Part shown: positions 182-56,301 of the stretch, piece by piece | Numbering within the stretch: the first letter of the stretch is position 1 | How the letters are laid out: every line of letters starts with the position of its first letter | Source: an uncultured Gammaproteobacteria bacterium | GTDB taxonomy: Bacteria > Pseudomonadota > Gammaproteobacteria > UBA6002 | Assembly: GCA_963705725.1 (NCBI GenBank) | Contig: CAVPKM010000017.1 | Location: 105,391-169,390, forward strand | Direction: 5' to 3' | DNA length: 64,000 nt | Translations under genes and position numbers: made by a program | Notes under the pieces: model-generated | Told to the model about the DNA's origin: nothing | Database searches by the model: none | The model's input: only the letters and a program-made list of their open reading frames with translations

Positions 182-235
182 TTCAACTTTCCGCCATTAA
201 ATTATTATTTTTTATTCAATTATAGCGCATCTTTG

Positions 236-464
236 AGTCAAGGAGGCAAAAACAGTCAGATTTTCACCATCTCTCGAACAATATCCGGTAAGGATTGAGT
301 TGCTGTTTGCTCTTGAAGTTTCTGGATAAGTTGGATGAATTTCTTGGTCATTTGCTCAACGTAATCTCTGTCAAGCAATAAGCGGCAGACCTCGTTGCGA
401 TACGATCAGGGTTGGCATGCTGTTGGATGAGTTCGGTGACAATACGTTCTCGTTCTTCAGCAAT
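236..464 (-). pseudogene. Duplicated, degenerate 3' end of lpxB plus ~20 bp downstream (direct repeat of 2139..2362)
   Basis: Near-identical to 2139..2362, with a 1-bp deletion (ctcgttgcga vs ctcgtttgcga), a 6-bp duplication (cgttct x2) and several substitutions. Confidence 0.95.
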
Positions 465-493
465 TTTTTTCATCCTGATCCTTTTGCGGATTA

Positions 494-2074
494 TCAAAGG
501 TTTGGCCTTCTTCTGGGGTCGGAGCTTGTTTGTTTTTCGCATGCTAGTAATGAGATTAATTGCGGCGTATGTTGATTAATCTTACATCCCACCAAGCCGA
601 GTTGACCTCGATCATTATCTCCAAAAGCATAGAGCGAGCCATTCTCACATAGAACTAGGCTATAGCAAATACCAACTGCCATGAGAATAGGTTTTTTATC
701 TTGAAAAAAAGAAATGCATTGCGGCGTATTTCGAGAATAGTTATGTCCCAAACCGAGTTGACCATAACTATTAAATCCAAAAGCATAGAGCGAGCCATCC
801 TCACATAAAACTAGGCTATGCCAATAACCAGCTGCGATCAGAATAGGTTTTTTATCTTGAAAAAAAGAAATGAATTGCGGCGTATTTTGAAAATAAAAAT
901 GCCCCAAACCGAGTTGACCATAACTATTATCTCCAAAAGCATAGAGCGAGCCATCTTCACACAAAACTAGGTTATGCCGACCACTAGCTGCGATCAGAAT
1001 AGGTTTTTTATCTTGAAAAAAAGAAATGAATTGCGGCGTATGTTGATCATCAACATGCCCCAAGCCGAGTTGACCCTGATGATTATATCCAAAACCATAG
1101 AGCGAGCCATCCTCACATATAACTAGGCTATGCCAACAACCAACTGCCATGAGAATAGGTTTTTTATCTTGAAAAAAAGAAATGAATTGCGGCGTATTTT
1201 GATCATCAAAATGCCCCAAGCCGAGTTGACCTCGATCATTCTCTCCAAAAGCATAGAGCAAGCCATCCTCACACAAAACTAGGCTGTGATTATCGCCAAC
1301 TGCCATCAGAATAGGCTGTTTATCTTGAAAAAAAGAAATGCATTGTGGCGTATGTTGATCATCAAAATGCCCCAAGCCGAGTTGGCCCTTATTATTTCTT
1401 CCAAAAGCATAGAGCAAGCCATCCTCACATAAAACTAGGCTGTGATTATCGCCAACTACCATCAGAATAGGCTGTTTATCTTGAAAAAAAGAAATGAATT
1501 GCAGCGTAATTTGATTAGTACTGTGGCCTAATCCAAGCTGGCCATAATCATTCGAGCCACAACTCGAAAGCAAGCCATTTTGAAGCACAAGGGTATGGCT
1601 GCCACCTGCTGCGATAATCGTTTTTCGCCACTTCTTTGCTATCTCATTTTTTATATTTTCATCATGGTTGAAAAACCGGCTGGTACAAGCCAAATTTTGT
1701 AAACTCCCCAATGTCATATAGGAAGCCACATTATAAAGCAGAATATCAGCAGGAATGGGCGTCGCTTCGATTGCTCTATCAGGTGAGAAAGTCCATGCTA
1801 ATTGCTTTTGAAGCGCTTGAAGCCTCGAAACATATTGACTTAACGGTGCTTGCTGAATCATCCAGGTTATTTGATTACAAAGTGCTTCACCATCCGCATG
1901 GGATCCCGCCAATTCATAAGCAAGTAGCTTTCCATCAAAAGCATTTAATTCCCTGGCAATAGAATGACATAATTCCCTGTTTGTTCCTCTTAGCGTAATT
2001 ACGATCTCTCTGTAGATAGCGGACCAAAATGGATGAAGTGCTTCAGTTTCTGATAACATAGAGAAATTCCTCAT
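494..2074 (-). CDS. RCC1-repeat (7-blade) protein with an N-terminal F-box-like motif; candidate secreted effector
   Basis: Seven ~52-aa repeats G..HSLVLCEDG.LYAFG.N..GQLGLGH; F-box-like IPADILLYNVASYMTLGSLQNLACTSRFFN just before the repeats. Confidence 0.9.
   Translation of the reverse strand: MRNFSMLSETEALHPFWSAIYREIVITLRGTNRELCHSIARELNAFDGKLLAYELAGSHADGEALCNQITWMIQQAPLSQYVSRLQALQKQLAWTFSPDRAIEATPIPADILLYNVASYMTLGSLQNLACTSRFFNHDENIKNEIAKKWRKTIIAAGGSHTLVLQNGLLSSCGSNDYGQLGLGHSTNQITLQFISFFQDKQPILMVVGDNHSLVLCEDGLLYAFGRNNKGQLGLGHFDDQHTPQCISFFQDKQPILMAVGDNHSLVLCEDGLLYAFGENDRGQLGLGHFDDQNTPQFISFFQDKKPILMAVGCWHSLVICEDGSLYGFGYNHQGQLGLGHVDDQHTPQFISFFQDKKPILIAASGRHNLVLCEDGSLYAFGDNSYGQLGLGHFYFQNTPQFISFFQDKKPILIAAGYWHSLVLCEDGSLYAFGFNSYGQLGLGHNYSRNTPQCISFFQDKKPILMAVGICYSLVLCENGSLYAFGDNDRGQLGLVGCKINQHTPQLISLLACEKQTSSDPRRRPNL
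560..1615. repeat. Tandem 156-bp coding repeats (RCC1 blades)
   Basis: Recurrent tatcttgaaaaaaagaaatg and ccaaaagcatagagc at 156-bp spacing. Confidence 0.92.
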
Positions 2075-2138
2075 AAAAAATTGATTTTATTGATTAGAAA
2101 CATATTTTTTTTACATAATACATATATGGCGCATTGTC

Positions 2139-2362
2139 AGTCAAGGAGGCAAAAGCAGTCAGATTTGCACCATATCTCGAACAATATCGGATAAGGATTG
2201 AGTTGCTGTTTGCTCTTGAAGTTTCTGGATAAGTTGGATGAATTTCTTGGTCATTTGCTCAACGTAATTTCTGTCAAGCAATAAGCGGCAGACCTCGTTT
2301 GCGATACGATCAGGGTTGGCATCCTGTTGGATGAGTTCGGTGACAATACGTTCTTCGGCAAT
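2139..2362. repeat. Direct repeat copy containing the functional lpxB 3' end
   Basis: Matches 236..464. Confidence 0.95.
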
Positions 2363-3300: not shown

Positions 3301-4278
3301 TTAGCTCTTAGAAGCAAAGCCGGCGGCTTCATCACGAGCAAGTTGTTCAGCAACAATGCGAGTAATTTCAACGGCAGTGGCTAGAGCGCGCTTTCCTTCT
3401 TCTCCTGTTACTACAGGAGGGGTAAGGGTTTGTATTGAATTCAAAAAAGCTGCGATCTCATCCATCAAGGCATCACCTTGTTCAAAGGCTTGTTCTTCAC
3501 TGATAATTTCCGGGATGCCAGGAAACATTTCACTGACCCCCTTGCGGTGGATGGCAAGCTCCTTGGTGTGAAGATCAAGAGAAATAAATGCATCATGCTG
3601 AAAAATTCTAAGCTTACGTTCAACTTTAAAGCTTACTCGGCTGGCAGTCACATTCGCCACGCAGCCATTTTCGAATTGTAATCTGACATTGGCAATATCA
3701 ATATGAGAGGATAAAACTGATGCGCCATTTGCGTGAATGTTAGTGATGGGCGAGTTAACAATACGTTGAATAATATCGATATCATGAATCATTAAATCAA
3801 GGACGACATTGATATCGGTGCCACGTGGCTTAAATGGCGCTAGCCTGATTGATTCTATAAAACGCGGATTGTCTAAAATCGTATCCAGCGCAACTAATAC
3901 GGTATTGAAACGCTCTAAATGTCCAATTTGAAAAACTCTAGCATGTTGATTCGCAATTTCGATTAAGCTTTCTGCTTCTTGAACCGTTGAAGCGATCGGT
4001 TTTTCAAGAAGAACATGAACATTATTTTCAAGAAAAAATTTGGCGATCGGATAATGAAGGAAAGTGGGAACTGCAATGCTAACAGCATCGATTTTACCGA
4101 GTAGTTTAGTATAGTCTGTTAACGCAGTCACATTATGCTGCCTGGCAATCACTTGGCAACGCTCCTCGTGAATATCACAAACAGCAATTAACTTTGATTG
4201 AGGAAGCAGGGCAAATTTTTCGGCATGAAATTTGCCTAAATATCCGACACCGATTACAGCAGTTCTGATTTTATTCAT
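3301..4278 (-). CDS. Gfo/Idh/MocA oxidoreductase, probably a GnnA-like UDP-GlcNAc 3-dehydrogenase
   Basis: GVGYLG, EKP, GHLERFN and DLMIHDID motifs; 2 bp upstream of lpxB. Confidence 0.85.
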   Translation of the reverse strand: MNKIRTAVIGVGYLGKFHAEKFALLPQSKLIAVCDIHEERCQVIARQHNVTALTDYTKLLGKIDAVSIAVPTFLHYPIAKFFLENNVHVLLEKPIASTVQEAESLIEIANQHARVFQIGHLERFNTVLVALDTILDNPRFIESIRLAPFKPRGTDINVVLDLMIHDIDIIQRIVNSPITNIHANGASVLSSHIDIANVRLQFENGCVANVTASRVSFKVERKLRIFQHDAFISLDLHTKELAIHRKGVSEMFPGIPEIISEEQAFEQGDALMDEIAAFLNSIQTLTPPVVTGEEGKRALATAVEITRIVAEQLARDEAAGFASKS

Positions 4279-38270: not shown

Positions 38271-41039
38271 ATGTTTAGAAATATTGGAGAAACCAAACCG
38301 TCCCATTCATCAGATAATGAAGAAGAATGGATAGATCATTATGAAACTGATGAACGAGTGTATCGTCGTCAAAATTATTATTCGCAAGGTTCCTCTTCTC
38401 ATCAAGTAACCCGCACGAATGATGGTAATAAAACTAATAAGTTTAGAAAAAAGACAATAATCGATGCACGGATGGTGAGTGATTATTTAATTCATTATAA
38501 TCCAAATAAAATTTCCGAATTTAAAACTATTTTATTGAACCATGACGATTTTCTACCAGCATGGCTCTGTGAGTCTATTATTCGAAAACTGACAGATCAC
38601 TTAATACGAGATAAGCAATTAAGAAACGAATTGTTACCCATTGTGAATTTTGCATTTAATAAAATTGATGAAGTTATAAAAAATAGCTCTGAAGCTTCAG
38701 ACATGTGCGTCATCAACCACCTTCCTTTCCTTTTTGAAAAGGCAACTAAATGGATTGATAGAGAAAATAAAGAAAGTTTTAATTTTGGATTATCAGTTGA
38801 TACCTGTCAGATTTTAATCAATAAGTTTGAAAATTCTGTTAAATTGTCAGGAGGGCAGGTAGCTTCATTTTTTTCTGGTATCTCAATATTGGTAAAAGAT
38901 GGATATATTACTAAAGAAATTAGATTTAATAAGCTAGATTACCTACTTTCTTATTTGCAGGGAGCTCGCTCTATTTACACAGCATTTTTTTCTTTTAATG
39001 AATTTATTCAAGCAAAGGTATTTTGCAATAAAATAAAAGCGAAAACCATCAAATCAATGTTATTAAGCATGTTTGATTCTCCTCAAGCTAAAATTCAGCA
39101 TAATCTTGAAGTTAGTGTGGCTACTTTTGCTAAATTACTCGCAGGAGGTTTCATCTTGCCGGATAATACAATCTTTGATGATTACGTAAAAGCGCTAACG
39201 TGTTATTATTCAAAAAATGTAACAATATTAACCTATATTATTGATAAAATTTTCTTTATTTTTAAATTCTTTGCGATTAATAAATTTATCATAAACCAGC
39301 TAGATTCTTCATTTATAAATAAAATACTTCATATTGCATTAAGATCGGATAAACTCCTTGGAAAAAATATATTCAATATTATTTCAGCAATTGTATCATT
39401 GGTGGAAAAAAAATTTCTTGCGCCATTTGAAAATGAGGACGTTGATCAATTATTCCTGCGTTTTATACCTCACCCTGGGCTTTGTTATTTTACTCTTAAC
39501 ACGCTTAATAATTATTTTAGAATTAACACTATAAAAGGAATGGCGAGAATTAGTGATCAAGTGGTAAAAAATTTAATTGATCATTTTGCGTCGATGCCTT
39601 CAATAGAGCTAGAAAATGTGTATTATGCAATCTTTTTCATTAAGAGATCGGGTGAGGAGGGGCTGCTTACCGAAGAGGTAACTAATCACTGTTTAAAAAT
39701 TCTGATTACTCTTTTATCCAAATTTCCTAGTGTTACTGTTTATCATATTTATTTTATTTCTTATTGTCTTAGAACGATTGATCAGTTAGCCACAATTAAT
39801 CTGGATATAGATGATATAATTGAGCAATTTATTTCTAATTTACTGGTTTTAAGTGAGTCAAAATATGCTACTCACGCGGCTTTAGCGTTTTTTTATATAA
39901 CGCGTTTAGAAAAAAATAATTTTATTAACATAAAAAATTCCAGTCTGAAAAACCTAATTTCCTGTATTTTGCATTCTCCTAATATCCGTATTCAGGCCAT
40001 ACGGCATCTCTTTAATGGTATAAAGATATTATCTGAAATAGGGGAAGATGATAAAACAAACGAACTTCGTCAAGTATTTTTAGAAGGTATTACTTATCTT
40101 AAAGAAAATAACGTTGACAACGCCTATAGGGTAAGCTTTTTGACTTCGATAATATCAATACTTTCTCTTGATATTAATAAAATGACATCATCAGAAAATA
40201 AATCTACAGACATAGATATAATTATGTCTGATGACGAGGATAAAATTTTTCCTCAACCCGAGTTAATGATATTTGATGAAGCTAATTATTATGGTTCTTA
40301 TTACTCATCAAGTGACTCTGAAGAGTGGGAGGATTTTGTAGAAAACCTTTATTCACCTGGTTTTTCTGATGAAAATTTTCAACTTGAACCTGCTCGAATT
40401 GAATTAAATTTATCTGCGAAAAACAATGCCAAAAATTCATCGTTCCGGGAAAATATATTTGGAAATTATGATCATAAAATAGAGGATACCGAAGGGTGTT
40501 ACCAAGTGTTTGATCAAGATATAGAAGAAGTAGGGAATACCTGTCCTTTTGCTGCTATTACAAATTTGGAAATTGAGCAAAAGCAGCCCTATTTTGGTGA
40601 GTTGTCTACTGCTTCAGCTAAGGAAGTAAATCCCACCCTATCTATCTCATCTGGATCAACTTTTTTCTCCTCAAAATCTATAACTGATTCGCAGTCGCAG
40701 TCTCATAAAAGAAAAAGGCCTGAAAATGAACCAATTTTTTTCCCACCTAATAAAAAATCAAAACTAGGAAAAGATACAAACCTATCTGCCTTACTAGCAC
40801 GATTATCTTTCACAAGAAAAATAAACTCCTTGGATTTAGATATTCCAACACTGAGTAAACAAGAGAGAGGATTGTTAAATAAACTTTATATTAGGCATAA
40901 AAAAGTGAATGGAAGATATCGATTAACAGTTGAAGGTTTCGAATTATTTAATGAGAGTTATCAAAGAATGAAACGTAAACTTTCTGCTGAAAAACCTTTG
41001 GAAGATGAAACAAAATCTTATTTAACTAGCAAGCAGTAA
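38271..41039 (+). CDS. Large orphan protein, paralog 3
   Basis: 922 aa; paralogous to the two preceding ORFs. Confidence 0.85.
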   Translation: MFRNIGETKPSHSSDNEEEWIDHYETDERVYRRQNYYSQGSSSHQVTRTNDGNKTNKFRKKTIIDARMVSDYLIHYNPNKISEFKTILLNHDDFLPAWLCESIIRKLTDHLIRDKQLRNELLPIVNFAFNKIDEVIKNSSEASDMCVINHLPFLFEKATKWIDRENKESFNFGLSVDTCQILINKFENSVKLSGGQVASFFSGISILVKDGYITKEIRFNKLDYLLSYLQGARSIYTAFFSFNEFIQAKVFCNKIKAKTIKSMLLSMFDSPQAKIQHNLEVSVATFAKLLAGGFILPDNTIFDDYVKALTCYYSKNVTILTYIIDKIFFIFKFFAINKFIINQLDSSFINKILHIALRSDKLLGKNIFNIISAIVSLVEKKFLAPFENEDVDQLFLRFIPHPGLCYFTLNTLNNYFRINTIKGMARISDQVVKNLIDHFASMPSIELENVYYAIFFIKRSGEEGLLTEEVTNHCLKILITLLSKFPSVTVYHIYFISYCLRTIDQLATINLDIDDIIEQFISNLLVLSESKYATHAALAFFYITRLEKNNFINIKNSSLKNLISCILHSPNIRIQAIRHLFNGIKILSEIGEDDKTNELRQVFLEGITYLKENNVDNAYRVSFLTSIISILSLDINKMTSSENKSTDIDIIMSDDEDKIFPQPELMIFDEANYYGSYYSSSDSEEWEDFVENLYSPGFSDENFQLEPARIELNLSAKNNAKNSSFRENIFGNYDHKIEDTEGCYQVFDQDIEEVGNTCPFAAITNLEIEQKQPYFGELSTASAKEVNPTLSISSGSTFFSSKSITDSQSQSHKRKRPENEPIFFPPNKKSKLGKDTNLSALLARLSFTRKINSLDLDIPTLSKQERGLLNKLYIRHKKVNGRYRLTVEGFELFNESYQRMKRKLSAEKPLEDETKSYLTSKQ

Positions 41040-41093
41040 TGCTCAAATCATACTGGTTGGTTTGTTGCATTATTAAAAAAAGCATGCTTAAAT

Positions 41094-41188
41094 CTTCTCA
41101 TCAGGGGTGCATCAGCTGAGAGAATCTACTTAAGAAGATTCAACCCTTTGAACCTGACTGGGGTAATCCCCGCGTAGGGAGATGAGAA
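41094..41188 (+). ncRNA. TPP riboswitch (THI box)
   Basis: GGGGTGC..GCTGAGA..ACCCTTTGAACCTGA..GGGTAAT.CC.GCGTAGGGA core with P1 ttctcatc/gatgagaa; directly upstream of a TenA-family gene. Confidence 0.95.
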
Positions 41189-41228
41189 TGTAAACAATGA
41201 TATTCCTATCATTGCATCCGCTTTTTCT

Positions 41229-41260
41229 ACTCCCTTTGGCTTTTTTTTACACCAAAGGAG
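41229..41260 (+). promoter_or_regulatory. RBS-sequestering hairpin, the probable riboswitch expression platform
   Basis: ctccctttgg can pair with ccaaaggag, which contains the SD of ATG 41269. Confidence 0.7.
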
Positions 41261-41268
41261 AACGTCAC

Positions 41269-41943
41269 ATGCTTTATCCACAATTAATGGGTCTATCAAA
41301 AAAATTATGGCAGCATAGCCAGCCTACCTTCCACAAAATTACTCAAACACCACTTGTAACAGGTTTAATTGAAGGGTTAACTACAGAAGAATTTCATCGA
41401 TTTACTCAGCAAGATATTTATTATCTTGAACAAAGTTTTCAGCCCGCGATGAAGATCCTCAGCCAAAAAGCTAGTTTGCAAAGCCATCACCAATTATTTT
41501 CTGATTGGATTGCTGCCACAAATGTTGAGTTGTCTCAACTAAAGAAGCAGCTTTCCTTGGTCTATACCGACACCATGATTCCACCTTCTGAAATTTGCGA
41601 AAAATATGGAAAACATCTTTTGGAAACCACCAGCAATCAATCCTATAGTATAGGTGTTGCCGCTTGTTTACCTTGTTTTTTATTTTTTCCAGCAGTAGGT
41701 CTGCATATTAAAAAGCGTGTACCTGATTTAGCCGGTCATCCTCAAGTAGAATGGATAAAAGTATATGCAGATGAATTATTTGATAACGCCTATCACATGG
41801 CTGCGTTTGCTAATGAAGTCATTTCTAAAGAAGATGAACCCGCTGCTTTAAAAGCCTACATGATTTCTGCTGAATTCGAACTTTGCTTTTTTGAAGATGC
41901 CTTGAAGGTAGAAAACAGCCAATCTTATTTTATGATGGAGTGA
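41269..41943 (+). CDS. tenA: TenA/THI-4 family protein (thiamine salvage, thiaminase II-like)
   Basis: F..F.QQD..YL, AACLPC, WI..Y, E..FF motifs; TPP riboswitch upstream. Confidence 0.85.
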   Translation: MLYPQLMGLSKKLWQHSQPTFHKITQTPLVTGLIEGLTTEEFHRFTQQDIYYLEQSFQPAMKILSQKASLQSHHQLFSDWIAATNVELSQLKKQLSLVYTDTMIPPSEICEKYGKHLLETTSNQSYSIGVAACLPCFLFFPAVGLHIKKRVPDLAGHPQVEWIKVYADELFDNAYHMAAFANEVISKEDEPAALKAYMISAEFELCFFEDALKVENSQSYFMME

Positions 41944-42338
41944 AGTTACGATAATTTCGCTGGCGTTAACAGGGTTAGTAATTGCTTAATTAATTTTATT
42001 TGTAACTACTTGGCCCAGCAAGGAAACGTCCATATTTGGCCATCTTTGAACGAAAAACCCGCTGAAAACTGCTCACATATTTATATGTGCTGCACTTTTT
42101 CAGCGAATTTTTCGTTCAGATATGGCTCAAATATGAACGTTTGTGCGTTGAACAGACTCTTACCCCGTGAGCAGTTACTTTTATTTTTTCATTTGGATTA
42201 TTGTCTAATAGTTTAAATTTAAGCGATTTCGAACCTTCTAGCTGATAAATTCTGGGTTGTTTTTGAATTAAATTTAATAGGGCAGTTAAATTAATTTTTG
42301 ACTCTATGTCAAATTCGATTTTTCCATGCAACGCACCT
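41847..42338. repeat. Direct repeat copy A (functional tenA 3' end + dead mfd 3' end interrupted by a MITE)
   Basis: 307 bp after removing the insertion; matches 43572..43884. Confidence 0.95.
42002..42178. mobile_element. 177-bp non-autonomous palindromic element (MITE-like)
   Basis: Absent from repeat copy B; 8-bp duplication ttttattt (41994-42001, 42179-42186); ends gtaactactt / gagcagttac; ~55-bp-arm internal hairpin 42024..42142. Confidence 0.92.
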
Positions 42339-43257
42339 AACTAAACTTCGGATCAAAAATCAAAGTGCTTTAAAAAACACGGTGTTGCTTACCATATAAG
42401 TGGAGGTACAATAATAAGTTCAATTACCTATTTGTTACAAGAAGAAATAGAATGGCAATTAAGGATGCAATTGAACTTAACCCTACCTTAAAAATTAATC
42501 AACCGCATGATAAACTACTCAAGCGACTCCTCTCCAATATTGTCACAACTCGTGAAATTCTTGAAGCTTACTTACCTGAAGAGGTAAAAAATTTCGTTGA
42601 CTTGAATCACTTGAGCGACAATCAGATTCTTTTGTCGATGCCGAACATCGCTTCCTAGAAGTCGACATTTTGTTTAAAACCCGTTGTAAATTAACGCAGG
42701 AAGATTGTCATATCTGGGTCCTCATCGAGCAGCAAAGACAGCCCGATGCCTGGATGCCGCTTCGTTTATTTTGTTACCTGGGGGTGATCTGGGATCATGT
42801 ACGAAAAGCTTCAAAAACTCGGGGCAAATCTGCCAAAATTCCTTTTGTTTATCCCTTGGTGATTTCTAATGCCTCGAGGCCATATCGGCATTCGTTAACC
42901 CTTCGAGATATGGTAGAGCCTGAAGCTGCCAAGCCATTGTTTGATAAATTATTTAATTCTCCGACTCAGCTGATTGATTTAGCTGCCTTACCTGATGAAG
43001 CGCTAAGGGTTCAGCTTCAGGGAGGCATTCAAGCGCTAGTGTTATTACTAAGCTTGAAGCATATTTATGACAAAAACTTATCAGATTATTTAGAATCCGA
43101 CTTGGTTGTCTTGCTTCAAGCATTAGAAGAACAGGGTTATAGAGATGAGGTAGTAGATTTGTTATATTATCTCTATTCTGAGGGAAATTTAAGCCATTCA
43201 TCTAAATTTTGGCCATTTTTACACCGAAAGTTTTCAAAAGAAGTAGAGGAGGAAGTC

Positions 43258-43527
43258 ATGACTTTGAGGCAACAAGATATACAGCAAGGGGAGCAGCGAG
43301 GGTGGGAGCAAGGGCTACAGCAAGGGTTGGAACAAGGGGAACAGAAGGGGTTAACACGAGGGTTAGAACAAGGAGAACAAAAGGGGTTACAGCAAGGCAC
43401 GCAAAAAGCCTTACAAGAAACCGCATTACGAATGCTGCAAAATAAACAGTTTAAAATAGAAACCATAGCCGAAATAACTCAATTATCAATAGCTGAAATT
43501 GAGTCTCTAGCGAAAAAAGAAGGTTAA
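43258..43527 (+). CDS. Predicted intragenic small protein (RpnS-type antitoxin), 89 aa
   Basis: GAGGAGG SD just upstream of in-frame ATG 43258 (MTLRQQDIQQGEQRG...). Confidence 0.7.
   Translation: MTLRQQDIQQGEQRGWEQGLQQGLEQGEQKGLTRGLEQGEQKGLQQGTQKALQETALRMLQNKQFKIETIAEITQLSIAEIESLAKKEG
43285..43397 (+). repeat. 12-bp tandem coding repeats (xxQG / xxKG / xxRG)
   Basis: caaggggagcag cgagggtgggag caagggctacag caagggttggaa... Confidence 0.85.
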
Positions 43528-43571
43528 TCTTTTGTTGATGGCACAAACTCTCGAAATGAAGAATCAGATGT

Positions 43572-43884
43572 TTTAAAAGCCTACATGATTTCTTGCTGAA
43601 TTCGAACTTTGCTTTTTTGAAGATGCCTTGAAGGTAGAAAACAGCCAATCTTATTTATGTCATGATGGAGTGAAGTTTACGATAATTTCGTTGGCGCTAA
43701 CAGGGTTAGTAATTGCTTAATTAATTTTATTTTTTCATTTGGATTATTGTCTAATAGTTTAAATTTAAGCGATTTAGAACCTTCTAGCTGATAAATTTTG
43801 GGTTGTTTTTGAATTAAATTTAATAGGGCAGTTAAATTAATTTTTGGCTCTATGTCGAATTCGATTTTTCCATGCAACGCACCT
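43572..43884. repeat. Direct repeat copy B (dead tenA 3' end + functional mfd 3' end)
   Basis: 313 bp; the tenA-derived part carries +1 and +4 bp indels relative to copy A. Confidence 0.95.
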
Positions 43885-46800
43885 GTTTCAATTTTGTTAA
43901 TACCAAGAGGCGCGGCGAGTAGCTTGATTTCAGTAACCAGGAATAAATTTTTGATAGGATCTGAAAATAACCCAAATCGATCAACCATCTCAACTTGAAT
44001 ATCATGTAATTGCTGTGTGTTGGCGCTAGCGATACGTTTATAAAATGTCAGTCGCATGCTGGTATCTGGCATATATAATTCAGGAATCAAGGCGGTAATT
44101 TTCAAATCTACTTCCGTGCCGGTGCTTAAAGGCAGGTCAGAATCAGAATAAGAGTCTTTATTATCCTTTAGGGCAGCTACCGCCTTATCTAGCATTTCAG
44201 AGTAAAGATGAAATCCAATTTCTTCTATAAATCCACTTTGATCTTCTCCTAAAATCTCACCTGAGCCACGAATTTCAAGATCATGAGTGGCGAGCATAAA
44301 GCCAGCACCTAAATCCTCTAAACTTTCAATTGCTTCTAAACGTTTCACAGCGTCTTTTGTCAAAGTTTGAGTTGGAGGAGTGAGTAAATAAGCATAGGCT
44401 TGATGGTGAGATCTGCCAACTCTGCCTCTTAGCTGATGAAGTTGAGCTAGACCGAAATGATTCGCTTTATTAATAATAATTGTATTTGCGGTCGGGATAT
44501 CAATACCGGATTCAACAATGGTGGTGCAAACAAGCACATTAAATCTTGCATGATAGAAGTCGGACATCACTTTTTCTAAATGTCGTTCAGTCATTTGTCC
44601 GTGAACATAATTAATTTTTGCTTCGGGCAATAGCTGAGAAAGGCCATCAACAGTTTGTTGAATACTTTTGACATCATTATGCAAATAATACACTTGACCG
44701 CCTCGTAATATTTCACGCAGTACCGCTTCTCTAACAATGGCTTGTTGATATTCACGAACAAAAGTTTTAATCGAGAGACGTTTTGCAGGTGCAGTCGCAA
44801 TAATCGATAAATCTCTGACGCCAGTTAATGATAGATTTAAGGTGCGTGGAATAGGAGTGGCAGTTAATGTTAATATATCTACTTCTGCTTTTAGCGCTTT
44901 AATTTTTTCTTTTTGATCCACGCCAAAACGATGTTCTTCATCAATAATCAATAATCCCAGACACTTAAATTTGATTTCAGATTGAAGTAATTTATGTGTG
45001 CCAATGATGATGTCAATCTTGCCTTCCGCCAGTTCTTTGATGATTTGATCTTGTTCTTTTTTAGATTGAAATCTTGAAACTACCGCAATCTTAATCGGCC
45101 AATTTGCAAATCTATCTTTAAAATTTTGATAATGCTGTTCAGCAAGGAGCGTGGTAGGAACAAGGATACCAGCTTGTTTAGTATCATGTGCGGCAATGAA
45201 AGCCGCCCGCATCGCCACTTCAGTCTTACCAAAACCCACATCGCCGCAAATCAAGCGATCCATGGGTCGTGGAGAGGTCATATCGGTGATCACTTCTTGA
45301 ATGGCTTTTAGCTGATCAGGAGTTTCTTCAAATTTAAATTCAGATGAAAAGGTTAGGTAGTCATGATTAGGAGTGGAAAAAGCATAGCCAATTTTTGCTT
45401 GACGTTTGGCATAAATTTCAAGCAAAGCAGAGGCAACGTCTCGAACTTTTTTTGCAGTGCGTGCTTTAATTTTTTCCCATTTTTTTGAGCCGAGCTGATA
45501 GATTGGAGCGGTTTCATCCTCTTTTCCGCTGTATCTTGCAATCAGTTGCAGTGATGAAACGGGAACGTATAACTTATCTCCTCCTTGGTATTCTATGGTA
45601 AGGTATTCCGCTTCGCATTCTCCGGTGTGAATGATTTTTAAGCCCAGATATCTGCCTACCCCATGGTTGATATGCACAACAGGCGCACCTATTTTTAGCT
45701 CTGCTAAATTGCGAATAATCTTATCCGGATCCAACCTTGATTTAGTGCGTAGCCTTCGTTGCATCACTTGCTGACCGAAGAGTTGGGCTTCGGTAACGAT
45801 GACAATGGGGGGCTCAATTAAGGTCATGCCCTCATCTAATGCAGCAACGCAAAGTGCAATTTTAGCGTTGGACCTTAAAAATTGCTTCCAGCTATCGATT
45901 AATACTGGCTGAACATTAATATCTGCTAATAAATTTAATAAAGATTCTCTTCTACCCAGAGTTTCGGCGCAGAATAATATTCTTTCTTGATGGGTATTAA
46001 GATAATGCTGAATTGTGCCAAGTGGCTGTGTCGATTTGTTATTAATGATTAATTCAACTGGCTTAGTTGTGGCGAAGTTAAGTGCATTTTGCTTAAGGTT
46101 AACCGGATCATTTTGAATCACAATTTGTTCAAAATTTTTAAATTTTCCAAATAACTCATTCACTTGAAGCACAATATTTTTGGGTTCCAACAAGGGTTTT
46201 TGAACGTCATAACGGAGTTGTTCGTAACGTTCGACAACTTCTTGCCAAAAAGCATTGGCCTTTTCTTCTATTTCTCCATAAAGCATCAGTAGGGTGTGAG
46301 CTGGGAAGTAATCAAACAGGGTATAGTGGTAATCGAAAAAAAGCGGAAGGTAATACTCAATACCCGTTGCATACTGCCCGTTAGTTACCGCTTCATAGAT
46401 AGGGCAAAGCATGGGATTGCCTGAAAATTGCATGCGCCAGGCTTGTCTAAAGGCAGAAATCGCCTCTTCGGTCAAGGGAAATTCCCTGGCAGGAAGTAGC
46501 CGGATTTCTGTTATCACATCGAGTGAGCGTTGAGTGTCGATTTCAAATGTGCGAATGCTATCCACTTCATTATCAAAGAGATCGAGCCTGTAAGGTGTGT
46601 CACTTCCCATGGGGAAAAGATCAATCAATGATCCCCTAATAGAAAAATCGCCATGCTCCAAAACTTGTGAAACATGGCGATATCCCCTCTGCTCTAAACT
46701 ACGTTGAAAATCAATGGTATCGAGTAGGTCACCTTTTTTGATTAAAAAAGTGGTTGCTTCAACATACTGACGGGATGTGGTGTAGTGCATTAAAGTATTG

Positions 46801-47144
46801 ATAGGGACGAGTAGGATTCCCTGCTTCATATGAGGGATATTATATAGCGTTAATAGTCTCTCTGAGATGATATCTTGATGGGGAGAAAAATGGTCATAAG
46901 GGAGAATTTCCCAGTCGGGAAACGTGCAGATTGTAATCGCTTCTTCTTCCGAAAAAAAACGGAGTTCATTTTGTAATTTTGTAGCAGTTTGCATGTCTGG
47001 TGTGACTACCACCACTAAGCTTTGATGCTGTTTGCTAACTGTTATTATCGCTAAACTGCTGGCAACGCCATATAATTGTCCCCAAAATTGTCGGTTTTGC
47101 GGTTTATTTGTTAAGCTTATCTCTAATGGAGAAAGTGTTGTCAT
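43677..47144 (-). CDS. mfd: Transcription-repair coupling factor
   Basis: LPYD.FSPHQDI.SERL, CGDVGFGKTEVA, DEEHRFG, TATPIPRTL, QLRGRVGRS, DLEIRG; start approximate. Confidence 0.97.
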   Translation of the reverse strand: MTTLSPLEISLTNKPQNRQFWGQLYGVASSLAIITVSKQHQSLVVVVTPDMQTATKLQNELRFFSEEEAITICTFPDWEILPYDHFSPHQDIISERLLTLYNIPHMKQGILLVPINTLMHYTTSRQYVEATTFLIKKGDLLDTIDFQRSLEQRGYRHVSQVLEHGDFSIRGSLIDLFPMGSDTPYRLDLFDNEVDSIRTFEIDTQRSLDVITEIRLLPAREFPLTEEAISAFRQAWRMQFSGNPMLCPIYEAVTNGQYATGIEYYLPLFFDYHYTLFDYFPAHTLLMLYGEIEEKANAFWQEVVERYEQLRYDVQKPLLEPKNIVLQVNELFGKFKNFEQIVIQNDPVNLKQNALNFATTKPVELIINNKSTQPLGTIQHYLNTHQERILFCAETLGRRESLLNLLADINVQPVLIDSWKQFLRSNAKIALCVAALDEGMTLIEPPIVIVTEAQLFGQQVMQRRLRTKSRLDPDKIIRNLAELKIGAPVVHINHGVGRYLGLKIIHTGECEAEYLTIEYQGGDKLYVPVSSLQLIARYSGKEDETAPIYQLGSKKWEKIKARTAKKVRDVASALLEIYAKRQAKIGYAFSTPNHDYLTFSSEFKFEETPDQLKAIQEVITDMTSPRPMDRLICGDVGFGKTEVAMRAAFIAAHDTKQAGILVPTTLLAEQHYQNFKDRFANWPIKIAVVSRFQSKKEQDQIIKELAEGKIDIIIGTHKLLQSEIKFKCLGLLIIDEEHRFGVDQKEKIKALKAEVDILTLTATPIPRTLNLSLTGVRDLSIIATAPAKRLSIKTFVREYQQAIVREAVLREILRGGQVYYLHNDVKSIQQTVDGLSQLLPEAKINYVHGQMTERHLEKVMSDFYHARFNVLVCTTIVESGIDIPTANTIIINKANHFGLAQLHQLRGRVGRSHHQAYAYLLTPPTQTLTKDAVKRLEAIESLEDLGAGFMLATHDLEIRGSGEILGEDQSGFIEEIGFHLYSEMLDKAVAALKDNKDSYSDSDLPLSTGTEVDLKITALIPELYMPDTSMRLTFYKRIASANTQQLHDIQVEMVDRFGLFSDPIKNLFLVTEIKLLAAPLGINKIETGALHGKIEFDIEPKINLTALLNLIQKQPKIYQLEGSKSLKFKLLDNNPNEKIKLIKQLLTLLAPTKLS

Positions 47145-47271
47145 ATGTCTATACTCTTCGTAAATGAATTTTCTATACACTCTTAGAGAGGGATGCTCAC
47201 GATCGGCCTAAAATCCATTCACGAAGAGTATATAAAGCACCGTGTTAAATCGCAATTACAAGGAGAACGGG

Positions 47272-53830: not shown

Positions 53831-56301
53831 TCAACAGATAATGCAATTTTCTTTTTCAGGTTGTGATGCCGGTTGCTCTGTTAGTTGTTCTCTTAGCTCA
53901 AAATTAGGGAATGCCGCATAGGTATCACGTGGCATTTTACATTTTGTGAAAATTAAGAAATCTATTTCCTTGCGGTGATCTAATTTCATCTCAAGGCTAT
54001 TCATTCGGATGGGATGTAGCCCTATTTCTGTGCAGTATGCCATTGCAACCAAGATATCATTTTCGTTATTTGCGATCATTATCATTTGACCCTCAACTAA
54101 TTTTACTTCTACAAGATTCTTAAAAGTTTCTGAATAATAGCTTTCCATCAATACATTTATTTGACGTAGAAGCAAAATTGGATAAGATTCAGATTCTTCT
54201 AGCCTGTAATTACAGTCTCCAGTGAGGAGGTGAAATTTTGTTAATAACCTGGCTGTATGTTGTTGTTCGGCACTGCTTGAATGGCGAATAAAATTAGTAA
54301 TATGTTGTGAAATTCTATCAGGATTATCGATATCTGCCTGCAGTGTCGTAGCTAGGTCATGAGATAACAGTGTTTTATATGAGGCGGGATCTTCTAAGAA
54401 ACATTGAACACTAATTTTTTTTAATCTAACTACCTGATTTTCTAAATGGTAATTGCTATTGATAATGAAATTATCCATTGCCATTTGAAAAATTTGATCG
54501 AGCACTTCAAAAGGAAGCCTAGATAAATGGCATAGTGTATCGGTGTTGTTTTGTCTGCTTGCCTGAATAAATACAATAGAAATAACAGCAGCTTTTCGAT
54601 TATTTTGTAAAATCTTCCATCCTTCGAGGTAGCACGCTGGATTCATTTGCTGAGCTGTTTGGTTATCTTTATTTTTTCTGTCGTCTTTGTATCCGTGATA
54701 GAGAAGTAGGGCTATCATCTTTGGTAAGTTATATCTTGCGGCTGTATGTAAGGCAGTCTCCTTAGTAGAAGAAAACAAGACCGGAGTCCAGACCTGAAGG
54801 TGAATCCCTCCAGTTTTTCCTACCATGATATGAGGAAGAAGAGATTCAGCTAATGACAGTTGCTTTGCCGCAGCTAACGACTCTTGCGGTGTCGCAATAA
54901 CGATTAGGAGTGCCGATTCAAATCCAAAGCGATTTCCTATATCGTGCGTTCGGTTTGAGCTTGCGATGGCATAAAGTGCCTCCCAATTCTTTCTTTCGAC
55001 AGCGATTATTGCAGGAGTCAACAAACTAGTGCCTTTGATATTATTGTACCGTCTCTTCGCAGCTAAATCTGCCCCATCTTTTATGGCTAGTTTGACTAGC
55101 TCAGCATTATTAAGTTCAAGAGCATTAAAGAAGATTATCTGTTGGATTCCCGAAACGGCCTTGCGATATTGGCAATTCATCTTCAATAAAAGAAAGATAA
55201 AGATGGTTATTAGCTCGATTGCTTTGTAAGATCTCCCATCCTTTGAGATAACATGCTGCATTCATTTCCTGAGCTGTTTGGCCAGCCGCATTTTTTTTGT
55301 TATCTTGGTAACCATAATAGAGAAGTAGGGCTACCATCTCTGGTAAGTTATGCTGCACAGCTACATGTAAGGCATAATGCTTAGTGCCATCAAAATATGC
55401 GAAATTGTCAACTCCTACCTGTATACGACGAAGAAGATTGGCAGCTAATGGCAGTTGTTTTGAGGCAATGGCGCATAGGAGTGCTGTTTCGAAACGAAAA
55501 CTACCATTATCATTTAATTGGCATGAGCTTACAATGGCACCAAGCGCCTCCCACTGGCTTGTTTCGGCGGCGAAAAATGCAGGAGTAACTGCATCACGTT
55601 TATCCTTATTATATTTCTGATACGATTTAATACTTAAATTTGCCCCTTGTGCTAGGGCTTGTCTGACTAAATCAGCATTGTTAATTTTAATAGCATTAAA
55701 CAGATTATCTGTGGCATCTCCAAAATTGTTTTCAAATATTGGCAAAGTGGATTGAAGAAAAGAAAGACAAAGATTGCCAGTAGCTCGACTGCCTTGTAAA
55801 ATCTCCCAGCCTTCGAGGTAGGACGTTTCGTTAATTTCCTGCGCCGTATGGTTTGTTTTATTTTTTTGATTGTCTTTGTAGCCATAATAGAGAAGTAGGG
55901 CTACCATCTCCGGTAAGTTATGCTTTACAGCGGTATGTAAGGCATTATCTTTAGTATCGCTAAAAATTACGTAGATAAAATTTCTTATATTACCGAGAAG
56001 AATCGCAGCTAACGACAATTGTTTGAATTCAATGACAGTTAGGAGTGCCGTTTCGAAAACGAAAACTACCGGTTGTATCTACCGCCGACCCTGCAATGGC
56101 ATTAAGTGCTTCCCAATGGTTTGATAAAGCAGCAATAATCGCAGGAGTAAACTGACCAGTAATGTTATTATTACGTGTATAGAGTTGTGTAGCGTATAAA
56201 TTTGCCCCCTGTGCTAGGGCTTGTTTGACTAGATCAGCATCGTTAAGTTTAACGGCATTGAACAGATTTTCTGTCGCATCCCCATAGTTACCTTTTTGCA
56301 T
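53831..56301 (-). pseudogene. Ankyrin-like repeat protein (3 repeat units) with F-box-like motif and C-terminal CaaX, split by two +1 frameshifts (~56058, ~55130)
   Basis: ORFs 56029..56301, 55125..56018 and 53831..55261 join into one frame of ~820 codons; ALH.AV..NLPEMVALLL.YG motifs; LSRLPFEVLDQIF; ends CIIC. Confidence 0.85.

Follow-up and report, generated by a model that had tools for sequence, protein, structure and literature searches.

A frameshifted rpn gene between long duplicate copies of the tenA and mfd gene ends in a gammaproteobacterial genome

In the 64-kb window analyzed here, a stretch of contig C17 from the 1.58-Mb, 20-contig draft genome of an uncultured gammaproteobacterium, a gene of the rpn family of defence nucleases (Rpn/YhgA-like) lies in the junction between two convergent genes, tenA and mfd, and a ~313-bp segment made of the ends of both genes is present on each side of it (coordinates are those of the window unless a contig is named). 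A repeat search and pairwise alignment place the two copies, A and B, at 41847..42338 and 43572..43884, and the duplicated segment is composed of the final ~97 nt of tenA, a 2-3-nt spacer, and the final 69 codons of mfd on the opposite strand. The tenA-like gene (TenA/PqqC family; 41197..41943, + strand) runs into copy A, which supplies its last ~97 nt as a functional 3' end (41847..41943); beyond the 2-nt spacer, copy A holds a pseudo-copy of the final 69 codons of mfd (41946..42001 and 42179..42338), split by a miniature inverted-repeat transposable element (MITE). Copy B begins with a tenA 3' pseudo-copy (43572..43676) and ends with the functional 3' end (43677..43884) of mfd, which encodes the transcription-repair coupling factor (43677..47180, - strand). 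The stop codons of the convergent tenA and mfd genes are 2 nt apart. The tenA product matches PF03070 at 37.4 bits (cut-off, 22) and aligns with positions 2-207 of the 208 in TIGR04306, with a score under that model's cut-off. The Mfd protein matches the equivalog model NF007966 at 1461.9 bits (cut-off, 1329), and because the match covers nearly the whole model (positions 9-1143 of 1148), we take mfd to be full length. Both genes are complete, tenA through copy A and mfd through copy B.

The two copies remain closely similar, with 100% identity between 41868..41930 and 43594..43656, and 97% identity between 42175..42338 and 43721..43884. Compared with copy A, copy B has insertions of 1 and 4 nt in its tenA portion and of 1 nt in the spacer that separates the stop codons; apart from these three indels and the MITE, there are six substitutions in the mfd half and one in the tenA half. 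Three elements of the original prediction for this DNA are borne out by these comparisons. It described two copies enclosing 1233 bp that contain only an rpn gene, which agrees with the repeat search, the alignment, and the PF04754 matches; it proposed that tenA uses copy A and mfd uses copy B, as the open reading frames (ORFs) and the coverage of the Mfd model confirm; and it held that damage is confined to the unused halves, where we indeed find it, with the MITE in the mfd half of copy A and the indels in the tenA half and spacer of copy B.

The enclosed DNA, which we refer to as the rpn cassette (42339..43571, + strand, 1233 bp), is largely shared with other copies in the genome: the part from 42364 to 43558 is common to them at 97-98% identity, and the border stretches of ~25 nt on the left and 13 nt on the right are of uncertain origin. 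Its only ORFs with a family match are two pieces of rpn, and it contains no integrase or recombinase gene. The two pieces form an rpn pseudogene (42452..43527, + strand) that is read in frame 1 to ~42612 and then in another frame to the stop codon at 43525..43527; reading in three frames and comparison with the paralogues attribute the frameshift to the loss of 1 nt near 42610 relative to the intact copies. The pieces match PF04754 at 33.1 and 63 bits (cut-off, 21). An intact paralogue matches TIGR01784 at 59.9 bits (cut-off, 52.1) and aligns over its full length with Escherichia coli RpnC (30% identity, E value 1e-33). In this alignment, which is with RpnC and not RpnA, the 'D(I/V)L' and 'IE(Q/H)Q' core positions are conserved; for RpnA, the PD-(D/E)XK core residues are given as D63, E82, and Q84 in the part of Kingston et al. 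2017 (PMC5350276) used here. The region encoding the Rpn C-terminal domain contains 12-nt (four-residue) coding repeats (43276..43408, + strand), the number of which varies among the rpn copies of this genome. Variable four-residue C-terminal repeats are known for the Rpn/RpnS toxin-antitoxin defence genes, according to the portion of Zhong et al. 2023 (PMC10400941) on which we draw.

Searching the genome with tblastn and blastn identifies the other rpn copies as a three-unit array, one full-length copy on contig C13, and one 3' fragment, also on C13. The array (C17:36493-40954) consists of three head-to-tail units of 1554-1555 bp, lies on the same strand as the cassette, and is 107 kb from it. 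All four of the other full-length copies are intact (323, 323, 363, and 331 aa) and appear to have the D...E.Q core. Within the array, the internal unit joint falls at the left end of the rpn unit, and the third copy departs from the others in its downstream flank and in its larger number of four-residue repeats (363 aa versus 323 aa). Alignment of the flanks shows that the left end of the rpn unit is fuzzy, with similarity fading over ~10-50 nt, and that the right end differs among copies: of five other copies examined, the C13 fragment and two array units match the insert for at least 31 nt past the stop codon, and the remaining two diverge ~5 nt past it. The repeat search found no inverted repeat pairing the two ends of the insert. 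Every other full-length copy has a MITE immediately ahead of its start codon; the copy at the tenA/mfd locus lacks this MITE and therefore represents an earlier form of the rpn unit. Since both borders of the insert fall within ~30 nt of unit ends seen in other copies, the inserted DNA is the rpn unit and not arbitrary neighboring DNA. We conclude that a discrete rpn unit was genuinely inserted here, and that ~313 bp of the target was duplicated.

The left joint, at 42338/42339, is 69 codons inside mfd and is abrupt; the insert and the continuing mfd sequence are identical at 11 of 44 positions in register, which equals the background. The right joint, at ~43558-43571, is ~32 codons inside tenA. 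Between the rpn stop codon and copy B is a 44-nt tail (43528..43571, + strand), the first 31 nt of which are the common cassette tail. This tail is identical in register to the tenA sequence at 41803..41846 at 24 of 44 positions; random pairs average 11.6 of 44, and scores of at least 25 are reached in a fraction of 5e-5 of 20000 such pairs. The translations of the tail and of the tenA stretch are SFVDGTNSRNEESDV and AFANEVISKEDEPAA, respectively. The idea that the tails of other cassettes run on into degenerate tenA or mfd sequence was rejected, as their scores past 31 nt equal those of shuffled sequence.

The original prediction further suggested that the arrangement may be the footprint of how rpn genes insert, left for example by widely staggered nicks or by a small circle. 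As a general statement this is not supported: checking the flanks of other rpn loci for long direct repeats revealed none at the other rpn places in this genome and none of at least 150 bp at the usable loci elsewhere. For this single event, staggered nicks or integration of a small circle may still have been involved. None of the three other rpn places in this genome (the array, the C13 copy, and the C13 fragment) is bracketed by duplicated unique flank. A search of genome contigs with the intact Rpn protein returned just three distant hits. A wider scan covered 55 rpn loci from 26 genomes, with a threshold of a bracketing direct repeat of at least 40 bp and at least 80% identity; 14 loci were dropped (five without a central ORF and nine with a flank of <700 bp), leaving 41 usable. 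Bracketing repeats are present at six of the 41, two of which are in this genome (the tenA/mfd locus and the array). Among the 36 usable loci of other genomes, four have short bracketing repeats (78, 115, 47, and 40 bp), and none has one of at least 150 bp. Three of these four repeats, all but the 78-bp one, belong to larger duplications in which rpn itself is included. The 47-bp repeat, in a same-genus genome, is found at that locus only and is the remnant of a tandem duplication of rpn and a neighbor gene after reciprocal deletions; one unit retains ~300 bp of rpn, and the other retains part of the neighbor gene. This duplication lies inside a 3.7-kb island (within G002:C24:474000-484500) with an rpn remnant, a gene for a 503-aa protein, an intact rpn gene, and msrB; the genome studied here has the empty site for this island, with homologues of the flanking genes adjacent to one another on contig C16 around 55835-55891. 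In E. coli K-12, rpnC lies between panD and panC, with no flanking repeat beyond 22 nt at 73% identity. The census agrees with what the part of Zhong et al. 2023 (PMC10400941) consulted here reports, namely that rpn genes lack identifiable inverted repeats or target-site duplications, that the ends of rpn-containing regions vary, that arrays form when genomic regions are duplicated in tandem, that rpn does not transpose autonomously, and that its products are unlikely transposases. A long duplication as the regular footprint of rpn genes is not supported.

As a genome-wide control, 880 ORFs of at least 200 aa were examined with 1.5-kb flanks. Only eight of them are bracketed by any direct repeat of at least 40 bp, and two by a two-copy repeat of at least 100 bp: the rpn pseudogene and a gene encoding RCC1 repeats. 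Because only two of 880 ORFs are so bracketed, the structure at tenA/mfd is beyond what chance would produce. The RCC1-repeat gene (494..2086, - strand; 530 aa, PF25390 and PF00415, with eukaryote-like repeats) is part of a comparison locus (225..2354, - strand; C17:105615-107744) in which it lies between a pseudo-copy of the lpxB 3' end (~225..455) and the real one (~2129..2354). The duplication here is ~235 bp, is ~95% identical between copies, and includes ~35 nt downstream of lpxB; the pseudo-copy has a 1-nt deletion, all five of its changed codons are non-synonymous, and it lies 29 nt upstream of the start of the next gene. In one same-genus genome, lpxA and lpxB are tail to tail with nothing between them, and in another a single gene lies between them. 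Both duplications, at rpn and at the RCC1-repeat gene, preserve sequence that two neighbors need, and the RCC1 case means that a long duplication of a neighbor's 3' end is not tied to rpn in this organism.

Two other bracketing repeats were considered as parallels and set aside: the one on contig C18 results from an IS66-type element that has inserted into a tandem array of 171-bp repeats, and the one on C13 is a pair of small paralogous genes. The IS66-type element (ORFs of 117, 118, and 515 aa; within C18:93500-100500) adjoins a frameshifted IS3-type element and a fragment of an RCC1-repeat gene. On contig C7, a 41-bp two-copy direct repeat (95% identity; 1586..1626 and 3303..3343 of the extracted locus L058) surrounds a gene for a 442-aa protein together with an 85-aa ORF.

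The differences between copies A and B are informative about their history. The mfd halves differ at 6 of 208 nt, with four non-synonymous and two synonymous changes; when the lpxB duplication is counted in, non-synonymous changes affect 9 of 11 altered codons, roughly as expected of decay without constraint. On these small numbers, we read the copies as having probably been identical at birth, with the unused halves decaying afterwards, because functional alleles should differ mostly synonymously. Allelic import, with both copies functional, is disfavored by the same 9 of 11 codons. Sequencing runs speak neither for nor against the assembly, an empty site, or circles: one soil run contained 0.17 of the sampled words and yielded, over 40500..45500, only contigs of 151-308 nt on rpn and mfd, none of which crosses a joint, and the other two runs gave only unrelated conserved matches. 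The rpn pieces from the soil run seem to derive from other copies, because one of them has the MITE-ATG joint that is absent from the copy at the locus.

The explanation we favor, to which we assign a probability of roughly 45%, is that the rpn unit was pasted by non-homologous copying into the tenA/mfd junction through two illegitimate joints made in one event. A ~1.2-kb single-gene unit present elsewhere on the same replicon would have been copied into the convergent junction, and because its joints lie in reversed order along the target, the intervening ~313 bp would have become duplicated. No element-encoded transposase or defined ends would take part. Two routes are plausible. A replicating 3' end could have switched template twice, into an rpn copy and then back to a position 313 bp behind its point of departure; alternatively, end-joining could have captured a DNA fragment at a break with widely staggered ends, which were then filled in. 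The existence of donor copies at 97-98% identity, with an array on the same contig and strand, supports such an origin, as do the abrupt left joint, the varying unit ends, the decay of the unused halves, and the similar duplication at the RCC1-repeat gene; the genome encodes both RecA and, in its 1.58 Mb, a Ku-LigD end-joining set (C9:14448-17686) in which LigD is split, the ligase and primase-polymerase being in a 627-aa ORF and the 3'-phosphoesterase domain in a separate overlapping ORF. Template switching by a polymerase at 3'-OH ends made by Rpn has been proposed to account for RecA-independent recombination (Kingston et al. 2017, PMC5350276). As to retention, only an insertion that duplicates would keep both tenA and mfd whole, and selection of this kind could account for a duplication having been kept at tenA/mfd and not at the other rpn loci, because the stop codons are only 2 nt apart. 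Later, the redundant halves would have decayed by the MITE, indels, and mostly non-synonymous changes, and the rpn copy would have suffered its frameshift. Taken together, the event looks like a one-off repair or copying accident rather than the normal movement of rpn.

Nonetheless, several observations weigh against this explanation. The in-register comparison over 44 nt reveals no clear microhomology at the left joint, and a stagger of 313 nt is far longer than end-joining normally fills. The 24/44 likeness of the tail to tenA is not required by copying of this kind, and may reflect homology-guided joining or an older history of the site. The RCC1-repeat gene has no second copy in the genome, and switching to an intragenomic template thus cannot explain the RCC1 case; that case and the rpn case may not share one route. 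No empty site turned up among 31 related genomes, where tenA with the junction DNA matched only its own genome; the TenA protein query has no match in four same-genus genomes, and Mfd is found in three of those four with other downstream neighbors. A scan of metagenome contigs for the stop-to-stop tenA/mfd junction motif returned three loci, none of them similar to this region by BLAST, and these are dismissed as chance matches. Finally, this is a single event, the mechanism of which we infer from anatomy alone.

Among the other readings, homology could have anchored the integration of DNA that brought its own tenA and mfd ends, so that the apparent duplication is a donor copy beside the resident one, either because RecA integrated a small circle of rpn and ~310 bp by a single crossover or because a sister strain with rpn next to a truncated tenA supplied a fragment that underwent one-sided homologous recombination. 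The product has exactly the Campbell-type topology, RecA is encoded, the rpn array could shed unit circles, and the likeness of the tail to tenA is what would be expected of a tenA remnant native to the incoming DNA. However, a circle with the target ends would itself have to come from an arrangement much like the one in need of explanation, and the tails of the other cassettes have no further tenA or mfd similarity. With a sister-strain donor, it is also awkward that the tail is 55% identical to tenA while the adjoining 99 nt has one substitution plus indels. Alleles should, moreover, differ synonymously, and four of six changed codons in the mfd half and five of five in lpxB do not; we consider this origin unlikely. 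A larger tandem duplication of rpn with the tenA and mfd ends, later trimmed by deletions, is quite unlikely. The same history explains the 47-bp repeat around rpn in a same-genus genome, there is an array in this genome, and the part of Zhong et al. 2023 (PMC10400941) cited above reports arrays formed by tandem duplication, but the locus would need one duplication and two deletions with end points coinciding with both unit ends, blastn finds no rpn remnant upstream of tenA or of mfd, and the repeat here holds no rpn sequence, unlike the three traced cases.

That the Rpn nuclease mobilizes its own gene, through wide staggered cuts or integration of a circle, and leaves long duplications as a family footprint, is very unlikely, despite the insert being equal to the recurrent rpn unit, the four intact copies with a putative D...E.Q core in the genome, and the finding, in the portion of Kingston et al. 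2017 (PMC5350276) consulted, that RpnA promotes RecA-independent recombination and leaves 3'-OH ends. The footprint is present at none of the three other rpn places here, no repeat of at least 150 bp occurs at the 36 usable loci elsewhere or around E. coli rpnC, the unit ends vary and lack inverted repeats, a non-rpn gene (RCC1) has the same footprint, and the published comparison, in the part used here, found no target duplications (PMC10400941). A broader version, in which duplications of 200-300 bp are the genomic footprint of Rpn-promoted RecA-independent recombination, is a long shot; intact Rpn would make the breaks, and either their 3' ends would switch template or Ku-LigD would fill and join their staggered ends, so that genes enter with a long target duplication. 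Rpn would act in cis on the rpn unit and in trans on other incoming genes such as the RCC1-repeat gene. That the assembler simply wrote the gene ends twice, misled by a strain mixture or by multi-copy rpn, is barely credible. In its favor, the draft genome is in 20 contigs, the 1.2-kb rpn unit recurs at 97-98% identity, and the runs gave no contig across a joint. However, copies A and B are not one sequence written twice because they differ by seven substitutions, three indels, and the MITE; in addition, each joint is unique sequence, and even if the assembler had mis-joined within rpn, one rpn gene would still have a genuine mfd fragment upstream and another a genuine tenA fragment downstream.

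The MITE in the unused mfd half of copy A (42002..42178, + strand, 177 bp) is flanked by an 8-bp target duplication, has an ambiguous border of 8 nt, and has an internal hairpin formed by a 30-nt inverted repeat (42039..42068 and 42097..42126). We call it a MITE because ~30 places in the genome match the 177-bp element, the best at 95% identity (C2:26091-26266); no transposase was identified for the family. Members of this family, ~170-180 bp long, occur less than 300 bp from each of the three places that have full-length rpn (42002..42178 in the window; C17:36581-36750 and C17:37757-37927 plus repeats; C13:143966-144085), and the array copies of rpn each lie between two inverted MITE copies, one of them directly before the start codon. 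This proximity suggests a targeting preference or a link between the MITE and rpn. Upstream of tenA is a 922-aa ORF (38271..41039), low in complexity and rich in serine and asparagine at both ends, with no Pfam match at an E value of 0.01 or better; it may be an effector-like orphan.

The structure at tenA/mfd is real and rare, and Rpn itself is not implicated by a single case. Its anatomy, its pattern of decay, its rarity, and its absence from other rpn loci are shown, whereas the origin in one event, the molecular route, and the part played by selection are inferred. The locus bears on how rpn genes spread: their distribution is patchy, they long carried a mistaken transposase label, and they are described as having no footprint of insertion. 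Here the inserted unit, its two joints, the duplicated target, and the subsequent decay are all legible in one clean natural case, which illustrates at least one route by which an rpn unit (and, close by, an unrelated gene) came into a tight junction without harming its neighbors. If such events prove recurrent, long duplications would be a searchable signature of non-homologous gene acquisition in bacteria, and the junction would be a concrete substrate for testing the template-switch model of Rpn action.

Comparison with known systems places the locus close to several of them. Insertion sequences and transposons make short target duplications of fixed length and have defined, usually inverted, ends. 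The rpn insert is like them in being flanked by a direct target duplication, but the duplication is ~313 bp and absent at other copies, the ends are variable, and there are no terminal inverted repeats. Campbell-type elements bring with them a duplicate of their target gene's 3' end, and as in their integration, direct repeats at both borders of the locus restore the interrupted genes; in contrast, the 1233-bp insert has no integrase or recombinase gene, and the repeat, which takes in two gene ends, far exceeds the usual attachment cores in length. A replication-based route to duplication, microhomology-mediated break-induced replication/fork stalling and template switching (MMBIR/FoSTeS), is reportedly described, in a model associated with Hastings and colleagues in 2009, for eukaryotic copy-number variants. 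As in that model, the locus has a duplication whose joint contains DNA copied from elsewhere in the genome, although the expected joint microhomology is not evident on the left side. The feature expected of template switching is present, in that the insert copies DNA found elsewhere in the genome and is flanked by a target duplication. Two template switches in the model of Kingston, Ponkratz and Raleigh 2017 (PMC5350276) would likewise give a templated insert flanked by a duplication, although that study, in the part drawn on here, measured replacement of chromosomal segments after conjugation and not insertion with duplication, and the rpn gene at the locus is broken. Unlike the rpn tandem array, a feature that this genome does have at C17:36493-40954, the locus contains one rpn gene and a repeat without rpn sequence. 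The rpn genes described in the part of Zhong et al. 2023 (PMC10400941) used here are closely similar in being one-gene units with variable ends, no inverted repeats, a tandem array, and varying four-residue repeats, and differ in that the rpn gene at this locus lies inside a ~313-bp duplication of unique target containing no rpn sequence. The tenA/mfd locus is, we conclude, a variant of the known non-autonomous movement of rpn.

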